The notes under the pieces were generated by a model that did not search any database, was not told the origin of the DNA, and saw only the letters and a program-made list of their open reading frames with translations. This document shows positions 2,649 through 60,837 of a stretch of 64,000 nt of DNA, one piece after another. Origin of the DNA: Nitrospirota bacterium (lineage in GTDB: Bacteria; UBA2233); assembly GCA_011620345.1 (NCBI GenBank), contig WOZJ01000015.1, forward strand, positions 112-64,111. The letters are read 5' to 3'. How positions within the stretch are numbered: position 1 is the first letter of the stretch; each line of letters begins with the position of its first letter. A program made the translations under genes and the position numbers.

Positions 2649-3716
2649 CTAGCCTACGAGAATGCGCCAAAACAACCCTTCGTCCTTCGCCCGGCTAAGC
2701 AAGAACGCCGCGGTAAGCCCAAAGGGCCGAAGAAAGCGCCTCCCTAGCCCGGCAAGCGGCACCTGGAGCGCAAGCAACCCGCGTTGGGCGCGCTTGAGCG
2801 AGACAAGCCATTTTACACTGTCCTCGGCCTCGGCGCGCGCACCAGCAATGGCCAAGGCGGCCGCCTCGCCCGAGATGACGGCGGGCCCGATCCCCTCCCC
2901 TGTGAAATCGAGCGCCAACCCAGCCGCTTCGCCGGCCAGGAAGATGTTTTCGAAGGCAAACCCTCTGTAGCACAAATTGATCCCGCTCGAGCGAAACATC
3001 AAGGGCGTCGATGTTCCGAACGCAAGCGAAAGCTTACGCTGAAGGGCTTTCACATCCGGCCAGAAACGACGGCCCATAAGCGGGACGAACCCAAACCCTA
3101 CCTTAGCGTGAGCCTTTTGAGGGAAGAGGTAGGCATACCCAAAGGGAATCTCATCAAAGGCCCCGATCAACAATAGTGTACGGAATTCGCCCTGGACATC
3201 CGCCTGCCAAACGAGGCCCTCAAAGAACGGCATACCGAGGGATCGCCTAACCCTCGAGGTAAACCCGTCCGCTCCCACCAGGTACCGAAAACGAACCGCC
3301 TGGGGAGTGTTGCCAAGGTAGGCTACGCCTGTTTGCCTATCGACCCCCTTTAATGTGCAGCCCTCGTACAACCCGCCTCCCTTCTCCAAAAATTCCCTAA
3401 GCAACGCCTCGAGCCAGGCCCGCTTCGAAAAGGTCCGAACACTGGATGCCGGCAGGGGAAGCGTCTTTTCGAGCAACCGGCCATTTGAGGCTTGAACCCA
3501 AGCGATTCTAGACACCCGCCCATCGCCCGGCAGCGCCTCAAAAAGCGGATGATCCTGGAACCGGCGTGTAATTGCCTCCGCGCAGGGTTTGCATGCCAGC
3601 TCGACCGCTGTTTCCCTTTCCACGATAAGAGTTTTATAACCCTTTTTAATCAAAGTAAGCCCGCAGGCAAGGCCCGAAGGGCCAGCACCTACAATAACGG
3701 CATCCCACCGCTCCAA
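2649..3716 (-). CDS. FAD-dependent oxidoreductase, geranylgeranyl reductase family
   Basis: DAVIVGAGPSG Rossmann motif, KPCAEAI, VGADG, PFGYAYLFP (PxxYxWxFP-like) and LAGEAAG...GEGI; TTG start with AAGGGG SD. Confidence 0.85.
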   Translation of the reverse strand: MERWDAVIVGAGPSGLACGLTLIKKGYKTLIVERETAVELACKPCAEAITRRFQDHPLFEALPGDGRVSRIAWVQASNGRLLEKTLPLPASSVRTFSKRAWLEALLREFLEKGGGLYEGCTLKGVDRQTGVAYLGNTPQAVRFRYLVGADGFTSRVRRSLGMPFFEGLVWQADVQGEFRTLLLIGAFDEIPFGYAYLFPQKAHAKVGFGFVPLMGRRFWPDVKALQRKLSLAFGTSTPLMFRSSGINLCYRGFAFENIFLAGEAAGLALDFTGEGIGPAVISGEAAALAIAGARAEAEDSVKWLVSLKRAQRGLLALQVPLAGLGRRFLRPFGLTAAFLLSRAKDEGLFWRILVG

Positions 3717-3971: not shown

Positions 3972-5303
3972 ATGAATCAGCCCGATACATTGGATCACCT
4001 TTGGGAAGAAGTCCGCCAACATCTAGACCAAATCATCGGAGGGCCTAACGTCGAACGATGGTTCCAAGCGGTCCGCCTCTTGTCGGTCAAAGAGGGAGTT
4101 TATTTACTGGAGGCCTCGCACCCCTACGCAAGGGATTGGATTCAGGCCAATTACCTGGAAATCCTGGAAAAAACCCTTCGCTCCAGGCTCGGCCACGACA
4201 TATCGATATCGATCACCGAGCCGTCCACGACACTCGAGGTGTTAGAATCCAGGAACGTTCAGGCCAAAGTAGCGAGCGGAAACCTGATCGACTGGTATCG
4301 GTTTGAGAGTTTTGTCGTCGGCCCTTCCAACCAACTCGCCCATGCCGCGGCCGTGGCCGTCTCGAACGCTCCAGGCAATCGGTACAACCCGCTGTTTTTC
4401 TATGGAGGAGTGGGCCTAGGAAAAACCCACCTAATCAACGCGATCGGCCATCGAATCCTTGAAAAATTCAGGAACTTCAAGGTGTATTTCATTTCTGCCG
4501 AACGGTTCATGAATGAGCTTGTGAACTCCATCCGAACTGACAGAATCGAGCAATTTCGTGAAAAATACCGCCAGGTTCACGTGCTCTTATTGGACGACGT
4601 CCAGTTTCTCGTCGGGAAGGAAAGAACCCAAGAAGAGCTATTCCATACGTTCAACACGCTTTATGAAACGAAACGTCAGATCGTGCTCACCTCAGATCGC
4701 TTCCCAAAGGATATTCAACAGCTCGACGAGCGCCTCCGTTCGAGGTTCGAATGGGGGCTTATCGCCGACATCAAGCTGCCGGACATGGAAACCCGCCTCG
4801 CCATCTTAAGGAAGAAGGCCCAAAGAGAGGGGATCGAGCTGCCGGACGATGTCGGGCTATACGTGGCAAAGCACATCAAGTCCAACATTCGAGAGCTCGA
4901 AGGCGCGCTCATCCGGGTGTATGCCCACAGCAACCTCACCGGAGAACGAATCACGCTCGAATCGGCAAGAGAAGCCTTGGCCGATACGAACGGTGGACTC
5001 CTGGAGTCCCAAGACATTTCCCTCGAGGCGGTGATCGATGCCGTGTGCCGCCACTTCGGCATCCGGGTATCGGAGATCAAGTCTAAAAAAAGGTCTTCAA
5101 GCATCCTGAAGCCCCGACAAGCGGCCATGTATCTCGCCAGGAAGGTTACCCAGGCAAGTTTACCCGAAATCGGCAAGATTTTTGGGGGCAAAGATCATAC
5201 GACCGTCATGCACGCCGTACGGGTCGTAGAGAAGATGATCGAAAAAGACGAAAAGCTCAAAGGAGCGATCGAGGCGATCGAGCGTGAGGTCCTTTCTCTC
5301 TAA
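3972..5303 (+). CDS. dnaA: Chromosomal replication initiator protein DnaA
   Basis: YNPLFFYGGVGLGKTHL, LLLDDVQF, RLRSRF, NIRELEGAL and domain IV GGKDHTTVMHA. Confidence 0.99.
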   Translation: MNQPDTLDHLWEEVRQHLDQIIGGPNVERWFQAVRLLSVKEGVYLLEASHPYARDWIQANYLEILEKTLRSRLGHDISISITEPSTTLEVLESRNVQAKVASGNLIDWYRFESFVVGPSNQLAHAAAVAVSNAPGNRYNPLFFYGGVGLGKTHLINAIGHRILEKFRNFKVYFISAERFMNELVNSIRTDRIEQFREKYRQVHVLLLDDVQFLVGKERTQEELFHTFNTLYETKRQIVLTSDRFPKDIQQLDERLRSRFEWGLIADIKLPDMETRLAILRKKAQREGIELPDDVGLYVAKHIKSNIRELEGALIRVYAHSNLTGERITLESAREALADTNGGLLESQDISLEAVIDAVCRHFGIRVSEIKSKKRSSSILKPRQAAMYLARKVTQASLPEIGKIFGGKDHTTVMHAVRVVEKMIEKDEKLKGAIEAIEREVLSL

Positions 5304-48175: not shown

Positions 48176-48739
48176 CTACTTTGCCCGTTCGATGTACATG
48201 CCGGTTCTCGTGTCCACCCGAAGCACTTCGCCCTGCTCGATGAACAAAGGAACCTGGACGACGAGCCCCCCTTCGAGCGTTGCGGGCTTTGTGCCGCCCT
48301 GGGCCGTGTCTCCCCGAACGCCCGGCTCGGCCTCTACCACCTTAAGCTCGACGAAGGTGGGAATCTCGATCGTCAACGGGTCTGTCCCCAAGAATAACGC
48401 GCGGACTTCCATGCCTTCTTTCAGGTAGAAGCGCTTATTCCCCAGCACGGAAAAAGGGATACTGAACTGCTCGTAGGTCTCCATATCCATGAACATTGCG
48501 CTTTCGCCCTCTAAATACAAGCATTGTAGTGGCTTCTCGGAGAAATCCCCCCCCTCGAAACGCTCACCAGAACGGAATGTTTTGTCCAGAACATTATCGC
48601 TTTTTAAGCCTCTTAATTTTGTTCGGACGAACGCGCCTCCCTTGCCGGGTTTGACGTGCTGGAAGTCGATTATTTCGAAGGGCTGCCCCTCGATCAGGAG
48701 CTTCAGCCCCTTCCGGAAGTCGCTGGTCGCTAGGCTCAT
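48176..48739 (-). CDS. efp: Translation elongation factor P
   Basis: HVKPGKGGAF.R, PGVRGDT...KPA.LE.G and VPLFI; ATG 48739. Confidence 0.97.
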   Translation of the reverse strand: MSLATSDFRKGLKLLIEGQPFEIIDFQHVKPGKGGAFVRTKLRGLKSDNVLDKTFRSGERFEGGDFSEKPLQCLYLEGESAMFMDMETYEQFSIPFSVLGNKRFYLKEGMEVRALFLGTDPLTIEIPTFVELKVVEAEPGVRGDTAQGGTKPATLEGGLVVQVPLFIEQGEVLRVDTRTGMYIERAK

Positions 48740-49215: not shown

Positions 49216-50285
49216 AGGTCAACAAGCTCCTCGATGGCGATAGGTTCAATCCGGACGGACCCGATACGGTCGAGCAGGACGAACCGGACCTTCGCGCCTT
49301 GCTTTTTCTTGTCGAGCGAAAGCAGCCTTTTCATCCGGTCGGGGTGAATGCTTGGCGGTTTCGTAGGCAAGCCAAGCGCCTTGAGCGATTCTTTGACCCT
49401 AGCGTACGCATCTTTCGTTGTACTGCCTATCCGGTAGGCCACCGCGGCTTCTACGAGCATTCCAAGACCAACGGCCTCCCCATGCAGAAAGGTCTTGTAG
49501 TGCGCATGTGCCTCGAAGGCATGGCCGAAGGTGTGGCCGAAGTTTAGTACGGCACGCAGGTTCGCCTCTCTTTCGTCTTGCTCCACGATGGCCTTTTTAT
49601 GCAGGATGCTGGCCTGGATTACCTTTGCCATCGCATCAGGGTCCATCCTGAGCAAGGCTTGTGCGTTCGAGACGATGAACTCAAAGAACGGCTCGTCTTG
49701 AATCATACCGTATTTTAGGACCTCTGCAAGCCCTGCGATGTACTCTCTTTTAGGGAGAGTGGAAAGATACTCCGTATCGATCAGTACGCCGCTCGGCTGC
49801 CAGAAGGCCCCTAGGGCGTTTTTCGCCTGCTTGAGGTCTATCGCCACCTTTCCCCCGATGCTTGCATCTACCCCGGCCAAGAGGGTCGTAGGAATCATGA
49901 CAAACGGAACCCCCCTTTGGTAGGTGGCCGCGACGAACCCGGCCAAGTCTCCCACAACTCCGCCCCCGAACGCGACGAGCGCCCAGCCGCGGTCTGCACC
50001 GAAATAGAGCAGCTTTTGGGCCACGCTTGCGTACACATCGAGCGTCTTGGCCCTTTCTCCTGCGGGGACGACGATGAGCTTTGGTTTCTTGGATAAATCT
50101 TTGATTAATTGGGCGTATAAGGGCTCTAACCATAGCTTGGCCAGGTGGCGGTCGGTCACGATGGCCAAGGGCCTTTGCTCGAGGCATTCCTCGAGGAACG
50201 CGGCAATTTTGTCCCTCACCCCTTGCCCTAAGACAATAGGATAGGTGCCGCCCTTTGTGGTTACGTCAATGCGCGTGATTTCCAT
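49182..50285 (-). CDS. aroB: 3-dehydroquinate synthase
   Basis: GGGVVGDLAGF, PTTLLA.VDASIGGK and LNFGHTFGHA.E. Confidence 0.97.
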   Translation of the reverse strand: MEITRIDVTTKGGTYPIVLGQGVRDKIAAFLEECLEQRPLAIVTDRHLAKLWLEPLYAQLIKDLSKKPKLIVVPAGERAKTLDVYASVAQKLLYFGADRGWALVAFGGGVVGDLAGFVAATYQRGVPFVMIPTTLLAGVDASIGGKVAIDLKQAKNALGAFWQPSGVLIDTEYLSTLPKREYIAGLAEVLKYGMIQDEPFFEFIVSNAQALLRMDPDAMAKVIQASILHKKAIVEQDEREANLRAVLNFGHTFGHAFEAHAHYKTFLHGEAVGLGMLVEAAVAYRIGSTTKDAYARVKESLKALGLPTKPPSIHPDRMKRLLSLDKKKQGAKVRFVLLDRIGSVRIEPIAIEELVDLWKTLRTEGLP

Positions 50286-50787
50286 TTTTTCTCGTCAGGC
50301 CGATGATGTTAAGGATTTCCAAGGCCACCTCACGGGGAACTCGCCCGTCCGTGGTTACCCGGTACTTCGCGAGTGCTTCGTAAAGGGGCGTTCTTTGTAG
50401 GTACAGCTCGTTTGCACGCGCATGGCTTCTCCAAAGTGGACGTTTCGTGTCGTTTAAGAGCCGAGCCTTGATCGTGTCGAACGAAGCCTCCAGGTATACG
50501 GTGTAGGGCAAGGGTTCGATCAGCGCGCGGGCTTCTTCGCTCGTAACCACCCCACCGCCGGAGGCGATCACAACGCCGTCTTCTTGAAGCGCGGCTTGAA
50601 GCGCCCTGACCTCTTTTTTCCGAAAGTAAGGCTCGCCGTGTTCTTGAAAGATCGCTTGGATATTAAGCCCCTCTTTGGCCTCGATTCGCGCATCCAGGTC
50701 GACAAACCTGAACCCCGACAGCCTGGCAAGGATTCGGCCGACGGAGCTCTTTCCGGCCCCCATGAACCCGAGGAGAAGGATGCGCAT
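50266..50787 (-). CDS. aroK: Shikimate kinase
   Basis: LLGFMGAGKS, DLD, GEPYFR and ASGGG; ATG 50787. Confidence 0.95.
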   Translation of the reverse strand: MRILLLGFMGAGKSSVGRILARLSGFRFVDLDARIEAKEGLNIQAIFQEHGEPYFRKKEVRALQAALQEDGVVIASGGGVVTSEEARALIEPLPYTVYLEASFDTIKARLLNDTKRPLWRSHARANELYLQRTPLYEALAKYRVTTDGRVPREVALEILNIIGLTRKNGNHAH

Positions 50788-51037
50788 ACCTTGCCCTGGT
50801 TTTTGACCTATCAGTTTACCATACACCGAAAGAAGAAACCGGCGCTATCCCTGAAGGGCAAGAACCTAGGCTTTCTTGGGTAGGCTTAAGGAAACAAAAA
50901 AAAGTGATTCTTTTGGCATGGCATGCCAAGACCTTAGTCAGTGCAGCTTCTTCGTCCCTGGCTTACTCTTTGGCGGGTGTATCGAAAAAACAGCAGGTTC
51001 TTCGTACCGAACTAAGGAAGGGGCTTGAGCGTCAGAA

Positions 51038-51063
51038 GGGGACGGCGGACCTGCGCCGTCCCC
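51038..51063 (-). terminator. GC-rich hairpin, probable terminator downstream of the micro-ORFs
   Basis: GGGGACGGCG-N6-CGCCGTCCCC, a perfect 10-bp stem 15 nt after the 40-aa ORF stop. The minus-strand tail is only TTCT, so the U-tract is weak. Confidence 0.6.
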
Positions 51064-51078
51064 TCGGATCGAAAAGGG

Positions 51079-51201
51079 CTAGAAAGGCTGAACCATAGGC
51101 TGCGACGGGCTCTTGCCGCCGGCCGGGCAAGCTTGGCCGGTACCCATGGTAGAAACAATCCCAAGGAAACCCAGGGCTAAGGCTACAAGCGTTTTCTTCA
51201 T
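51079..51201 (-). CDS. 40-aa secreted micro-protein (not in ORF track)
   Basis: MKKTLVALALGFLGIVSTMGTGQACPAGGKSPSQPMVQPF*; AAGGAGA SD; n/h/c signal-peptide layout. Confidence 0.7.
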   Translation of the reverse strand: MKKTLVALALGFLGIVSTMGTGQACPAGGKSPSQPMVQPF

Positions 51202-51301
51202 GGCTCTCTCCTTGAAGGGGGCGTTTAAGGACAATTTATACCTACTTAAGTTCTATCCCTCTACACCCCAACGTGTCAAGAGAGCCAGTATGCCGCTTTT
51301 T

Positions 51302-51445
51302 TTACAAGCCGAAAGGCCCCTGTGGCCCGCCCTTTTTTTGTCCTGGCGGGATACCTTGCCCCGGCGGAATGCCCTGTCCGGGCGGAATGCCTTGGCCTGG
51401 CGGGCCGAAAGCGACGCTAGGACCTTTCTTCGTAAGCTTAAGCAT
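51302..51445 (-). CDS. 47-aa PPGQGI-repeat micro-protein (not in ORF track)
   Basis: MLKLTKKGPSVAFGPPGQGIPPGQGIPPGQGIPPGQKKGGPQGPFGL*; AAGGAGG SD 7 nt before ATG; repeat units differ only at synonymous positions. Confidence 0.8.
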   Translation of the reverse strand: MLKLTKKGPSVAFGPPGQGIPPGQGIPPGQGIPPGQKKGGPQGPFGL

Positions 51446-51484
51446 GGCGTGCCTCCTTTTGTTTTTGGGTGAAACCCATTAAGG

Positions 51485-51919
51485 CTAACTTAACTTCTCA
51501 AGCGCCTTCAAAAAGGACCCATGGTGCTCTTTTTCGTCCGATAAGATGTCTTCAAAAATCTCCTGGATCTTGGAAAGCCCCTCTTTCCCGGCTGTCTCTG
51601 CGATCCGGGGGTAGAGCTCCAAGGCGCCTTCCTCGGCTTTGACATCCAGCTCGATCATTTCTTTGATTGTCTTGCCCACGATGACGGGCGGGTCCGGCTG
51701 TGTGGGTAACTCGCCTCCAAGCTTGCGGAACGCCTCGGCGATCTCCTCGGCATGCTCCATCTCTGCCATGGCAATCTTTCGGAACAGCTTGCGGGCCTCT
51801 GGCCCCTCTTCCTTTGGGGTGGCAATGTGGTGCCACATGTACTGGATAGAGCCCTGAAGCTCGCTTGCCAGGGCTTGATAAACCATGTCCATTAGTTCTT
51901 TCGAGGCTTGTTGCGTCAT
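51485..51919 (-). CDS. Ferritin-like (bacterioferritin/rubrerythrin fold) diiron protein
   Basis: ASEL..SIQY, AEMEHAE (ExxH), KAEEGA..LY and DEKEH (ExxH); ATG 51919 with AAGGGG SD. Confidence 0.88.
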   Translation of the reverse strand: MTQQASKELMDMVYQALASELQGSIQYMWHHIATPKEEGPEARKLFRKIAMAEMEHAEEIAEAFRKLGGELPTQPDPPVIVGKTIKEMIELDVKAEEGALELYPRIAETAGKEGLSKIQEIFEDILSDEKEHHGSFLKALEKLS

Positions 51920-52033
51920 GGCTTCCCCTTTTTGTTCAACGACCGGCACAATCTAAGTTTATCCCAAAAAAAGAGATGAAGTCCAAGCCGAACCCTCTTA
52001 GCCCCGGAGGGGCGGCGGCCTCGTTGGAATGCC

Positions 52034-53101
52034 TCATAGAAAATCGGACGCGATGGCGTCTTGCTCTTTGAGGAGCCTTTGTTTTTCCGAATCAGGAAGG
52101 AAGGCGGCAAGGATAGAGTTTTTAGCGAGCGTGGACACGTCCCATGCGCTCATGTCTAAAGCCTCGGCGCTTTGGAGGTAGTTTTCCAGCAAATAGCCGC
52201 CAAAATAGGCCGGGTCGTCCGAGTTGACCGTGACCAAGATCCCAAAATCCAAAAGCCGCTTTAGGTTGTGCTCCGTAAGCGACGGGAACACCCTTAACCT
52301 TACGTTGGAAAGCGGACAGACGCTCAAAGGGATCCGGCGGGCCTTGATCTCTTCCATTAGCTCCGGGTCTTCTTCCGAGCGCACGCCGTGGTCAACCCTA
52401 AGCACCTTGAGCTCGCTTAGCGCCTCTCTGACGTAGCCCGCCGGCCCTTCCTCGCCCGCGTGCGCGACAGGCAGAAACCCTTCTTCCCTGGCCTTGGCAA
52501 ACACCCGGCGGAACTTGGACGGCGGGTTGCCCGCCTCGCTCGAATCGAGGCCAACGCCAAGAATTGCCTTTTTGTAGGGAAGGGCCTGTTTTAGCGCTTC
52601 AAAGGCCTCCTGCTCGCTCAAATGGCGCAAAAAGCAAAGGATGAGCGCAACCGAGAGGCCAAGCTTGTTCTCGGCATCTTTGGCCGCCTCGAGAAGCCCT
52701 TCGATTACGGACGCGAAGGGAACCCCGCGGGAGGTATGCGCCTGGGGGTCGAAGAAGACCTCGGCCCGGACAATGTTCTCTTCGCTGGCCTTTTGAAAGT
52801 AGGCCATAGCCAGCTCGTAGAAGTCTTGCTTGGTCTTCAGGACCGCAAGCCCTTGGTAGTAAAGCTTAAGGAAGTCCTCCAGGTTGGAGAAGTTGTACGC
52901 CTCCTTCAGGGCCTCTGGCGTTTTGTAGCCAAGCGCTACGGCGTTCTTTTTGGCCAACCTAAAGACCATCTCTGGCTCGAGCGTTCCTTCGATGTGCAGG
53001 TGGATCTCGGCCTTGGGCATGGCCTTAAGGAAGTTTTGCATGACATCGCGGTCCATCCGCTTGGAAAGGGGGCTTTCTTTTGGTGTCGCCTTGGGTTCCA
53101 T
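52034..53101 (-). CDS. Adenine/adenosine deaminase (amidohydrolase add family, adenine-type)
   Basis: PKAEIHLHIEG, FFDPQAHT, AHAGEEG, RVDHGV, VCPLSN and NSDDPAYFGG. Confidence 0.92.
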   Translation of the reverse strand: MEPKATPKESPLSKRMDRDVMQNFLKAMPKAEIHLHIEGTLEPEMVFRLAKKNAVALGYKTPEALKEAYNFSNLEDFLKLYYQGLAVLKTKQDFYELAMAYFQKASEENIVRAEVFFDPQAHTSRGVPFASVIEGLLEAAKDAENKLGLSVALILCFLRHLSEQEAFEALKQALPYKKAILGVGLDSSEAGNPPSKFRRVFAKAREEGFLPVAHAGEEGPAGYVREALSELKVLRVDHGVRSEEDPELMEEIKARRIPLSVCPLSNVRLRVFPSLTEHNLKRLLDFGILVTVNSDDPAYFGGYLLENYLQSAEALDMSAWDVSTLAKNSILAAFLPDSEKQRLLKEQDAIASDFL

Positions 53102-58958: not shown

Positions 58959-59432
58959 TTATGGCCTTACGTAGGCGTATCCCTCGCTTTGTTTCCGGAT
59001 CACCTCGACGACCCCAGCCGGCACGACCTGGATAAACCCAGGCAGCGACGCCTGCTCCACATGGAAGGCATTCAGCGCGTTTCGGCAGGCCACGAACCGG
59101 ACACCGCGGGAGTTGAGAGCCTCCATCCTTGATGTCAGCGATGGATCAAGAAAGCCCTTGACCGCTTCTGCGTTGCCGACGATCTCCAGCTTGGCTTTTT
59201 CCTCGCCTACCTCGTACAGGATATTCTCAAGGTTGGTGAGCGCAAGGCTCCATTTTGCCGCCTCGTCGACGTGGAACACCGCCATGAGGCCTTCTTGCTG
59301 CTTCAAAGCCCCTTCCTCGGCATTTCCCTTTGAGGACTTAGGGCCGTACAGCAGGCAAAAGGTTGCCACAATGCCCAGCACGCGGGCCAGCCTTCTTATG
59401 ACCCGGGCACCTTGCCCGACTCGCCTAAACAT
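58959..59432 (-). CDS. DsrE/DUF1791-family protein, possibly exported
   Basis: VFHVD...[13 protein letters not shown] and VPAGVVE...Q..GYAYVRP. ATG 59432 overlaps the glnA stop; start uncertain. Confidence 0.8.
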
Positions 59433-60837
59433 CGTAGTACAGAGCGAATTCGTAAGGGTGCGGGCGTAGCCTGATTTGGTCCACTTCAATCTTGCGCTTG
59501 TAGTCAAGCCAGGTTTCGATCACGTCCTGGGTGAAGACGTTACCTTTCAAAAGGAACGCATGATCGGCCTCGAGCGCGTCGAGGGCCTCTTCGAGCGAGG
59601 CGGGCATTTTAGGAACGCCTTCGAGCTCCTCAGGGGAAAGGGCGTAGATGTCCTTGTCTAAAGGGCTACCGGGCTCGATCCGGCTCTGGATGCCGTCAAG
59701 TCCCGCCATGAGCAGTGCGGCGAAGGCGAGGTAGCCGTTGCACGACGGGTCCGGGAATCGCACCTCAATCCGCTTGCTCTTGGGGGAGGTGGAATACATC
59801 GGGATGCGGATCGAGGCCGAGCGGTTGCGTGAGGAATACGCCAAATTGACGGGCGCCTCGAACCCCGGGACGAGCCGCTTAAAGCTGTTGGTGGTCGGGT
59901 TGGTGAGCGCAGCCAGCGCGGCCGCGTGCTTTAATATTCCGCCGATGTAGAACATGGCGATTTCGGAGAGCCCTCCGTACCCATCGCCCGAGAACAAGTT
60001 CTTTCCTCCCGCCCAGATGCTCTGGTGACAGTGCATTCCAGAGCCGTTATCGCCGAACAGCGGCTTTGGCATGAACGTTACGGTTTTGTTGTGCCTCGCG
60101 GCCACGTTCTTAATGACATACTTAAACCACATGAGCATGTCGCCCATCTCTACGATGGGGGAAAAGCGCATGTCGATCTCGCATTGCCCGCCGGTGGCCA
60201 CCTCGTGGTGCTGCGCTTCGATCCGGATGCCGACCTGCTCCATAATCCTGCACATTTCGGTCCGTATGTCCTGGGTCTTGTCGGACGGCGGGACGGGAAA
60301 GTATCCCTCTTTGTAGCGGGGCTTGTAGCCAAGGTTGGGGCGCTCTTCACGGCCCGTGTTCCATCGACCCTCAATAGAATCCAGGGAGTAGAAGCCGAAG
60401 TTCGGCCCCTGGTCGAAGCGGACGTCATCAAAGAGGAAAAATTCCGGCTCCGGACCGAAGTAGGCCGTATCGCCGATCCCGATCGACTTTAAGTAGGCCG
60501 CCGCCTTCTTGGCGATGTTCCTTGGGTCGCGGCTGTAGGGCTCGTGGGTAATTGGATCGACGATGTCGCAGATCAGGCTCAAGGCAGGGCCCGCCAGGAA
60601 AGGGTCCATGACGGCCGTGTTGGGGTCGGGGATGACGAGCATGTCGGAGGCATGGATGGGCTGCCAGCCGCGGATAGAAGAGCCGTCAAACCCGAACCCT
60701 TCTTCAAAGGTACTCTCTTCGAGCTCGTAGATGGGGACGCTGAAATGTTGCCACATTCCGACGAAATCGAGGAATTTGAGGTCCACCATCATGGCGGAAT
60801 GCTTTTTTGCGTACTCGAGTACCTCTTTTGGCTCCAT
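59425..60837 (-). CDS. glnA: Glutamine synthetase type I
   Basis: [48 protein letters not shown] and adenylylation Tyr (KDIY). Confidence 0.99.

Follow-up and report, generated by a model that had tools for sequence, protein, structure and literature searches.

A mini-bacterioferritin-like gene in candidate phylum UBA2233 and the conserved, lineage-restricted micro-protein gene that follows it

A previous study by Wissink et al. (Commun Biol 2026; PMC13168243) described the mini-bacterioferritin (mBfr) of Ca. Methanoperedens (Mper-mBfr; PDB 9qq4/9qq5), in which bare four-helix bundles assemble into a 12-mer; the shell has a canonical diiron ferroxidase site, and Met ligates the six coprohaems that lie between subunits. 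In this study, we analysed a stretch of 64,000 nucleotides (nt) from a Nitrospirota bacterium (contig WOZJ01000015.1; hereafter the window), in which the gene for a ferritin-like protein of 144 residues is followed by two short open reading frames (ORFs), one for a 47-residue peptide with an internal repeat (the repeat peptide) and one for a 40-residue peptide (peptide 3). An initial annotation of this DNA had grouped the three, with a ferritin-like diiron protein at their head, as a candidate system that matched none it recognised. The results showed that the ferritin-like protein is now closest to the mBfr family, and the substitution patterns of both micro-ORFs mark them as genuine, previously unrecognised genes restricted to the candidate phylum UBA2233. 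The proposed three-gene system reduces to a conserved pair of mBfr and repeat peptide, to which the third member is an optional addition.

The ferritin-like protein has Pfam matches to ferritin-type families (Table 1), and all NCBIfam models, including EncB/ferrit_encaps, scored far under their cut-offs. Its best PDB sequence match was mBfr 9qq4 (phmmer E 9.6e-17), with an identity to Mper-mBfr of only 32%. The AlphaFold2 (AF2) model, with a predicted local distance difference test score (pLDDT) of 93.3, contained only four helices (7-33, 40-66, 85-112 and 116-143 of the 144 residues), so that the modelled chain is a bare bundle with no E helix, BC helix or tails. A Foldseek comparison of this model gave 9qq4/9qq5 as the best match by target-length TM-score (0.92-0.93; root-mean-square deviation 1.4-1.5 Å), against 0.73-0.86 for Bfr and DpsL chains. 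The full E/ExxH/E/ExxH diiron set reported by the initial annotation was confirmed: E20, E53/H56, E96 and E129/H132 were invariant across 22 aligned homologues and correspond to E16, E49/H52, E91 and E124/H127 of Mper-mBfr. The supporting Tyr27 and Tyr103 (Y23 and Y98 in Mper-mBfr) were kept and invariant in the same alignment, as was Met54, which aligns with the haem ligand Met50 of Mper-mBfr (Met52 in the alignment of that paper). The nearly invariant His31 aligns with Mper His27, the dimer-interface His29 of mBfr. The likeness to 9qq4 thus covers a bare four-helix bundle of ~140 residues, all six ferroxidase ligands, the haem Met and the dimer-interface His.

Several features set the window protein apart from the described mBfr. 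Gly34 in the A-B loop, the proposed signature of 12-mers, is replaced by Lys (Lys36 in the window and in all four close relatives), with a Gly three residues later in the window; the loop variants among these sequences are ATPKEEG, ATSKEEG and ATSKKEA, and the Gly is kept in distant homologues and in the genome's own paralogue. The propionate-binding Arg13 and Tyr28 of mBfr are Leu17 and Ile32 in the window, and in the window clade the Pro-rich BC loop is longer by one inserted residue and the C-terminus by ~5 residues. The protein is thus mBfr-like, closest to the mBfr family and probably part of a divergent subclade. By its residues and modelled fold it is closest to a 12-mer-type, haem-Met-bearing, cage-forming diiron ferroxidase, with its assembly and haem binding being predictions.

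A second, canonical mBfr copy was found elsewhere in the same genome (G000:C43:2870-3307, L029). It encodes 145 residues, is 47% identical to the window protein and has on one side a 699-residue gene with a thioredoxin domain (DUF255-like) and on the other, beginning 4 nt after it, a gene for an acyl-CoA dehydrogenase; no micro-ORF was found alongside it. Distant homologues with 40-52% identity were present in Nitrospirota, Methanoperedens and Bathyarchaeota (mBfr genes at L030/L031 3001-3420, L032 3001-3414 and L033 3001-3411). Their neighbours include cytochrome bd, desulfoferrodoxin, VIT1, several rubrerythrins, a flavodiiron protein, rubredoxin and Fur, surroundings that fit a role in iron or oxygen stress. 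In L032, a 54-residue Cys-rich ORF (CxxC...CC) begins 20 nt past the mBfr gene, a different type of small neighbour.

The source genome, from a bacterium that is uncultured and branches deeply, comprises 1.8 Mb in 72 contigs and is 96.8% complete. Among species genomes, its single relative of the same genus is deposited as "Nitrospirae bacterium UBA2233", and no other is closer than the same domain. Metagenomes from oil-field, hydrocarbon, sludge, soil and sediment samples contain near-identical DNA. The analysis recovered seven loci from this lineage: the window, L002/L025 and L036 (mBfr 94% identical to that of the window), L021 and L035 (~78%), and L022 and L023 (71-72%). The same peptide of 47-48 residues is the next ORF after mBfr in all seven. 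The expectation of the initial annotation that close ferritin homologues carry similar micro-ORFs therefore held for the repeat ORF over this whole range of 71-94% identity; peptide 3 is absent from two of the loci.

The repeat peptide contains the unit (PPGQGI)3 and four PPG motifs in 24 residues, the last of them 12 codons before the stop. Pro (12 residues) and Gly (13) predominate; there are 5 Lys, whereas Asp, Glu, Cys and His are absent, and the net charge is ~+4.5 and the pI 10.6. In the alignment, 37 of its 47 columns were invariant, and the nucleotide substitutions fell almost entirely at third codon positions along the whole ORF. Nei-Gojobori counts gave 12-31 synonymous versus 2-11 non-synonymous differences; the proportion of synonymous differences (pS) was 0.33-0.85, with synonymous sites saturated, and the ratio of non-synonymous to synonymous rates (dN/dS) was 0.02-0.07 where dS was finite. 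The add, mBfr and aroK proteins are just 57-79% identical between the same genomes, indicating that the repeat peptide is the best-conserved gene of its neighbourhood. Between strain-level contigs, the repeat ORF had 0 changes versus 8 substitutions in 30 nt of the spacer between the micro-ORFs. These patterns mark the repeat peptide as a translated product on which purifying selection acts very strongly from end to end, and the treatment of both micro-ORFs as real genes in the initial annotation stands (pN/pS of peptide 3, ~0.3).

The micro-ORFs could in principle be frames left open by chance, or a repeat element of the DNA or RNA, an explanation that we find hardly credible. They are indeed short and of low complexity, and the antisense frame is open in several genomes; however, the divergence is confined to third positions while the peptide repeats stay identical, and the antisense frame varies in its residues (Cys/Trp, Ile/Met) and does not stay open in L021, so that the antisense ORF was rejected as a real gene. 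The three 18-nt repeat units within one genome likewise differ from each other at third codon positions only, indicating selection on the peptide and not on a DNA or RNA repeat. An Rfam scan returned no family (best score 16.4 bits versus a 37-bit cut-off), and a repeat element or known RNA was rejected on this result and on the synonymous differences between the units. The repeat ORF was also considered as a read-through extension of mBfr. It is in frame with mBfr in the window (51446-51484), L025 (3433-3474) and L021 (4442-4477), and out of frame in L022 and L023; TAG-CCT-TAA stands between the two in the window and L025, whereas L021 has just one TAA. Because of the tandem stops in the window and the differing frame in L022 and L023, read-through was rejected as a conserved feature.

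No homologue of the repeat peptide was found outside the lineage in the collections searched. A word-indexed search of 5.8 billion protein clusters returned one protein, from the same lineage. A hidden Markov model (HMM) of six sequences, run against 1.8 billion representatives, gave no credible match; it picked up a repeat protein of Bacteroidota, which was spurious, and a sequence of low complexity. A degenerate DNA pattern for PPGQGIPPGQGIPPG hit the UBA2233 genome alone among 185,579 species genomes (GTDB) and nothing in JGI metagenomes. The peptide had no Pfam or NCBIfam match, and its string was not found in a literature search.

Peptide 3 (MKKTLVALALGFLGIVSTMGTGQA-CPAGGKSPSQPMVQPF) begins with an MKK n-region and a 17-residue hydrophobic core, followed by an invariant Cys25, its one Cys, and a conserved 16-residue tail. 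It is kept in five loci (the window, L025/L036, L021 and L035), where changes in the hydrophobic part are conservative and the tail CPAGGKSPSQPMV does not vary; pN/pS was 0.06-0.15 in the C-terminal 16 codons. A dedicated search matched only the same locus in relatives, and no Pfam or NCBIfam model matched. Cys25 stands directly after the hydrophobic core, preceded at -3 to -1 by G-Q-A or G-H-T, which is non-canonical with respect to the lipobox [LVI][ASTVI][GAS]-Cys. From these features, peptide 3 could be either a signal peptide that releases a 16-residue Cys-initiated peptide, a tiny lipoprotein whose lipobox is not canonical, or a membrane anchor that stays uncleaved. It is real, expressed, predicted to be exported or membrane-anchored, and dispensable.

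Peptide 3 is deleted in L022 and L023 (2/7 loci), where mBfr and the repeat peptide are intact, showing that there is no obligate three-gene set as first proposed. In L022, a relic of peptide 3 (FKGPSQPMVQAL, ending at a stop codon; 4690-4726) follows the stop of the repeat peptide directly and lies in the +1 frame; 8/11 of its residues equal those of the window, and most of the differences are synonymous. A more decayed relic occupies this place and frame in L023 (KPLAQALW and a stop; 3000-3040). The neighbouring genes of L022 and L023 are only 77-79% identical, a divergence over which neutral decay should have erased a relic that the two had shared since they separated. The relics reflect either recent independent deletions or a tail that is still expressed, e.g. 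by +1 frameshifting, and, more speculatively, they could even mean that a frameshift product linked to PPG stalling is made in these two loci.

Metatranscriptome contigs matched two of the three genes. In a wastewater sample, a 190-nt contig on 51712-51901 represented mBfr RNA. In a freshwater sample, a 211-nt contig with 93% identity spanned 51054-51264, and the peptide-3 tail in it carried three synonymous and three conservative or terminal changes. When 20 kb of the window was compared with the freshwater sample, the only other fully aligned contig was glnA (235 nt, 97% identity, metatranscriptome X26), indicating that a close relative is transcriptionally active there; since the glnA contig had the lower word depth, peptide-3 RNA seems abundant. 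By eye, we noted TTGACA-18-TAGAAC in the spacer between the micro-ORFs as a weak candidate promoter, and the RNA contig reaches 20 nt upstream of the start predicted from it. The contigs hint at separate or processed transcripts, arising from an own promoter or as a stable hairpin-protected 3' fragment.

Our preferred reading, which we regard as quite possible though short of probable, is that the repeat peptide may be a lineage-specific basic accessory peptide of the acidic mBfr, made only with the help of elongation factor P (EF-P). The repeat peptide would be co-transcribed with mBfr and, as an intrinsically disordered, basic, Pro/Gly-rich factor, would act on the mBfr shell, for instance by serving in trans as a tail with which the cage is tethered, plugged or tuned. 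Such a tail would parallel the Lys-rich tails that Dps bears in cis and that mBfr lacks, and the level of the repeat peptide would follow translational capacity.

Several observations speak for a connection, among them the hairpin that closes the unit in each lineage. The repeat ORF starts 29-39 nt past the mBfr stop in six of the seven loci (39 nt in the window, ~110 nt in L022), with its own Shine-Dalgarno (SD) sequence and with no hairpin or promoter call in between. The adjacency of the two genes holds in L021, L035 and L037, in which trx and SIS genes have taken the place of all that lay past the hairpin, and the block of mBfr, repeat peptide and, where present, peptide 3 is whole despite this rearrangement. 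The association is confined to the diverged mBfr copy with Gly34 replaced by Lys, the BC-loop insertion and the longer C-terminus; the canonical paralogue has no such peptide. The charges are complementary, +4.5 for the repeat peptide versus -11 per subunit for the strongly acidic mBfr. From their close, co-oriented and conserved adjacency, a functional connection between mBfr and the repeat peptide is plausible. The most specific form of this idea, in which the (PPGQGI)3 peptide would be a dedicated tail or partner of a 12-mer mBfr that gates its pores, tethers it to DNA or membrane or controls iron release, and in which an EF-P-throttled supply would couple iron and oxidative-stress buffering to translational capacity, is speculative and in our view improbable.

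Other results weigh against such a link. It consists of synteny alone, in a shallow and sparsely sampled lineage in which add and GH31 are equally syntenic. The HMM search of the 1.8 billion representatives gave no fusion protein or Rosetta-stone link. Both peptides are absent next to the mBfr homologues at <=52% identity and next to the paralogue of the same genome, and the metatranscriptome contigs searched held no RNA evidence for the repeat ORF. The freshwater sample had peptide-3 RNA without assembled mBfr RNA, and the wastewater sample the reverse. In an AF2 model of a read-through chain of mBfr, linker and peptide, the peptide was disordered (pLDDT 35-45) and did not dock, a result that is uninformative.

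These points bear on an alternative in which the micro-proteins are independent of mBfr and are its neighbours only through conserved local gene order in a shallow lineage; the repeat peptide would then target nucleic acid, the ribosome or the envelope, and peptide 3 would be a tiny exported peptide or lipopeptide. We consider this possible but rather unlikely. The GH31-add-mBfr order is just as conserved although the functions are plainly unrelated, peptide 3 has been lost while the others remain, peptide-3 RNA occurs without mBfr RNA, and among the distant homologues examined no mBfr outside the lineage has such partners. The close spacing of the repeat ORF to mBfr in 6/7 loci and the persistence of the block through downstream rearrangement argue against independence and favour an accessory role for the repeat peptide.

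A further explanation concerns translation of the repeat ORF. EF-P relieves PPG stalling, and PPG stalls without EF-P uncouple transcription from translation and alter termination (PMC5021804). With four PPG motifs in 24 residues, synthesis of the repeat peptide should depend strongly on EF-P. The repeat ORF could thus be a regulatory gauge of EF-P, in which a stall would alter mRNA fate or read-through into aroK-aroB-aroQ-efp-accBC and feed back on efp. The repeat ORF is the only open frame of the genome with at least four PPG motifs; efp lies ~2.5 kb downstream and co-oriented in the window and L022, and the aroK-led order begins in L002, L023 and L036, whose stretches end before efp. A hairpin also follows the micro-ORFs, and in L023 (GGAGG-GCCAT-CCTCC) it abuts the repeat-peptide stop. 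However, L021, L035 and L037 keep the peptide perfectly although a convergent trx gene comes next and neither aroK nor efp is found within 10 kb, and the repeat ORF follows a full-length gene instead of occupying a 5' leader. Between it and aroK, the window has peptide 3, then a strong hairpin and 250 nt. All 47 positions are constrained and not PPG alone, the Pro codons drift freely between lineages, and the last PPG is too distant from the stop for a stalled ribosome to cover the L023 hairpin. On this evidence, we regard a gauge function as doubtful and the accessory-peptide reading as the better account of the repeat ORF. As an observation apart, the EF-P loop encoded here (48176-48739) is VKPGKGGAF, with Lys at its tip as in lysine-modified types.

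The initial annotation had also suggested a peptide-modification module. We weighed a system in which the diiron protein modifies the peptides in the manner of ribosomally synthesized and post-translationally modified peptides (RiPPs), together with encapsulin and Bfd-type ferritin-partner systems, and consider this group very improbable. The group has a single point in its favour, namely that a diiron protein adjoins two short peptides, of which one carries a leader-like signal sequence; against it, the protein is closest to a cage-forming ferroxidase with a haem Met and not to a substrate-binding diiron oxygenase, and no radical-SAM, YcaO, LanM, protease or transporter gene is nearby. The neighbours are GH31, add, aroK, aroB, aroQ and efp, with trx and SIS in L021, and none is a recognised RiPP enzyme. 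With kinship to mBfr and no modifying enzyme adjacent, the suggestion of peptide modification loses its basis. The encapsulin family PF04454 was absent from the whole 1.8-Mb genome, in a search that detected it in three control genomes and did not extend to family 2-4 encapsulins; the earlier observation of no encapsulin gene was thus extended from the window to the genome. Encapsulin cargo was rejected on this result and because mBfr ends with helix D and has no targeting tail. A Bfd-like partner was rejected because the repeat peptide has no Cys and cannot be a [2Fe-2S] partner, nor does it match a Pfam or NCBIfam model.

The features of the locus are listed in Table 1. The three co-oriented minus-strand genes lie between add and aroK where the initial annotation had placed them, each preceded by an SD-like sequence, as read from the DNA: GGGGAAG for the mBfr-like gene, AAGGAGG 7 nt 5' of the repeat-peptide ATG, and AAGGAGA for peptide 3. 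The mBfr-like gene starts with ATG, and an upstream GTG at 51949 is likewise open.

Table 1. Positions and basis of the features discussed, in window coordinates
Feature	Position	Strand	Basis or remark
GH31 glycosidase gene		minus	first in transcription order, before add
add, adenosine/adenine deaminase	52034-53101	minus	A_deaminase PF00962, 2.8e-88
add-mBfr spacer, 114 nt	51920-52033	minus	likely holds the mBfr promoter
mBfr-like ferritin gene, 144 residues	51485-51919	minus	Ferritin PF00210, 9.7e-21; Rubrerythrin PF02915, 4e-15
Repeat micro-protein MLKLTKKGPSVAFGPPGQGIPPGQGIPPGQGIPPGQKKGGPQGPFGL, 47 residues	51302-51445	minus	conserved directly after mBfr in seven loci
Spacer between micro-ORFs, 100 nt	51202-51301	minus	alignment of loci
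Peptide 3, 40 residues, predicted exported/membrane micro-protein MKKTLVALALGFLGIVSTMGTGQA-CPAGGKSPSQPMVQPF	51079-51201	minus	conserved in five loci
GC-rich hairpin closing the unit	51038-51063	minus	read from sequence; in minimum-free-energy and centroid folds
Spacer before aroK, 250 nt	50788-51037	minus	
aroK, shikimate kinase	50266-50787	minus	PF01202, 1.8e-43
aroB, aroQ, efp, then accBC	3' of aroK	minus	co-oriented
efp (EF-P)	48176-48739	minus	~2.5 kb downstream of the repeat ORF, co-oriented
glnA, glutamine synthetase	59425-60837		within the window

The single closing hairpin of the initial annotation was recovered by folding. It reads GGGGACGGCG-CAGGTC-CGCCGTCCCC (minus strand, 51063-51038), with a stem of 10-12 bp and a 6-nt loop, and is the dominant element of the RNA fold. 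It has no U-tract, and a terminator scan gave no call there; the RNA fold analysis of the locus revealed no alternative-pairing structure (z -1.16). L002 keeps the stem with a different loop, and L021 has an unrelated perfect 15-bp hairpin in the same position, ahead of the convergent trx gene. Each lineage closes the unit with a hairpin, and from one lineage to another the sequences of these hairpins are not related. A promoter scan of the locus called no consensus promoter. The spacer between the micro-ORFs holds a block (CTCTTGACACG.TGGGGT...) common to the window, L002 and L021, and the add-mBfr spacer a block (TTG(G/A)ACTTCATCTC-T6-GGGATAA) present in the window, L025 and L036 and partly in L021 and L035; this 114-nt spacer is the likely place of the mBfr promoter. 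The 250-nt spacer before aroK is unusually long for a compact genome. On its minus strand (50788-51037) it carries a palindrome, TTGGCATGCCATGCCAA, with T8 9 nt further on, and has no Rfam match.

Mini-bacterioferritins were defined only in 2026, and a diverged mBfr copy with an invariant micro-protein next to it provides a concrete candidate partner. The 47-residue peptide also illustrates clearly how a gene can be missed: gene callers mostly skipped it, and it is present as one entry in 5.8 billion clusters. Its four PPG motifs make it a predicted extreme natural client of EF-P that could serve as a stall reporter. If it has no link to mBfr, the locus still adds two orphan families of micro-proteins, both new, from a candidate phylum that has hardly been sampled.

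Finally, we compared the locus with known pairs and units. The described mBfr proteins have no associated micro-protein, and Wissink et al. list the redox partner for release of core iron from mBfr as unknown (PMC13168243). The Bfr and Bfd pair resembles the locus in that a haem-type bacterioferritin adjoins a small gene (<70 residues); Bfd, however, is a four-Cys [2Fe-2S] protein, and the repeat peptide, having no Cys or His, cannot carry electrons in that way. With tailed Dps proteins the locus shares a 12-mer ferritin-like shell, here predicted, and a flexible basic segment containing Gly, Pro and Lys. In Dps the tail is part of the subunit, whereas here the segment would be a separate 47-residue gene product; mBfr is without any tail, and its DNA binding and physiological role are listed as open (PMC13168243). 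The Salmonella mgtL leader, a Pro-rich regulatory ORF, and the EF-P-dependent PPX stalling of cadA/CadC offer a likeness in the short Pro-rich ORF, the PPG motifs, the downstream hairpin and, in the window and L022, an efp gene further on. Unlike these, the repeat ORF of the window is not in a 5' leader, is wholly conserved and is kept where no efp follows. The cotJA-cotJB-cotJC unit of Bacillus encodes two small proteins and a ferritin-like/Mn-catalase protein. It matches the locus in having three genes, one for a ferritin-fold diiron or dimanganese protein and two for small proteins; its genes, however, stand in the opposite order and the sequences are not similar (a Pfam match to Coat_F, E 0.088, was below threshold), and the organism here is a diderm and not a spore-former.

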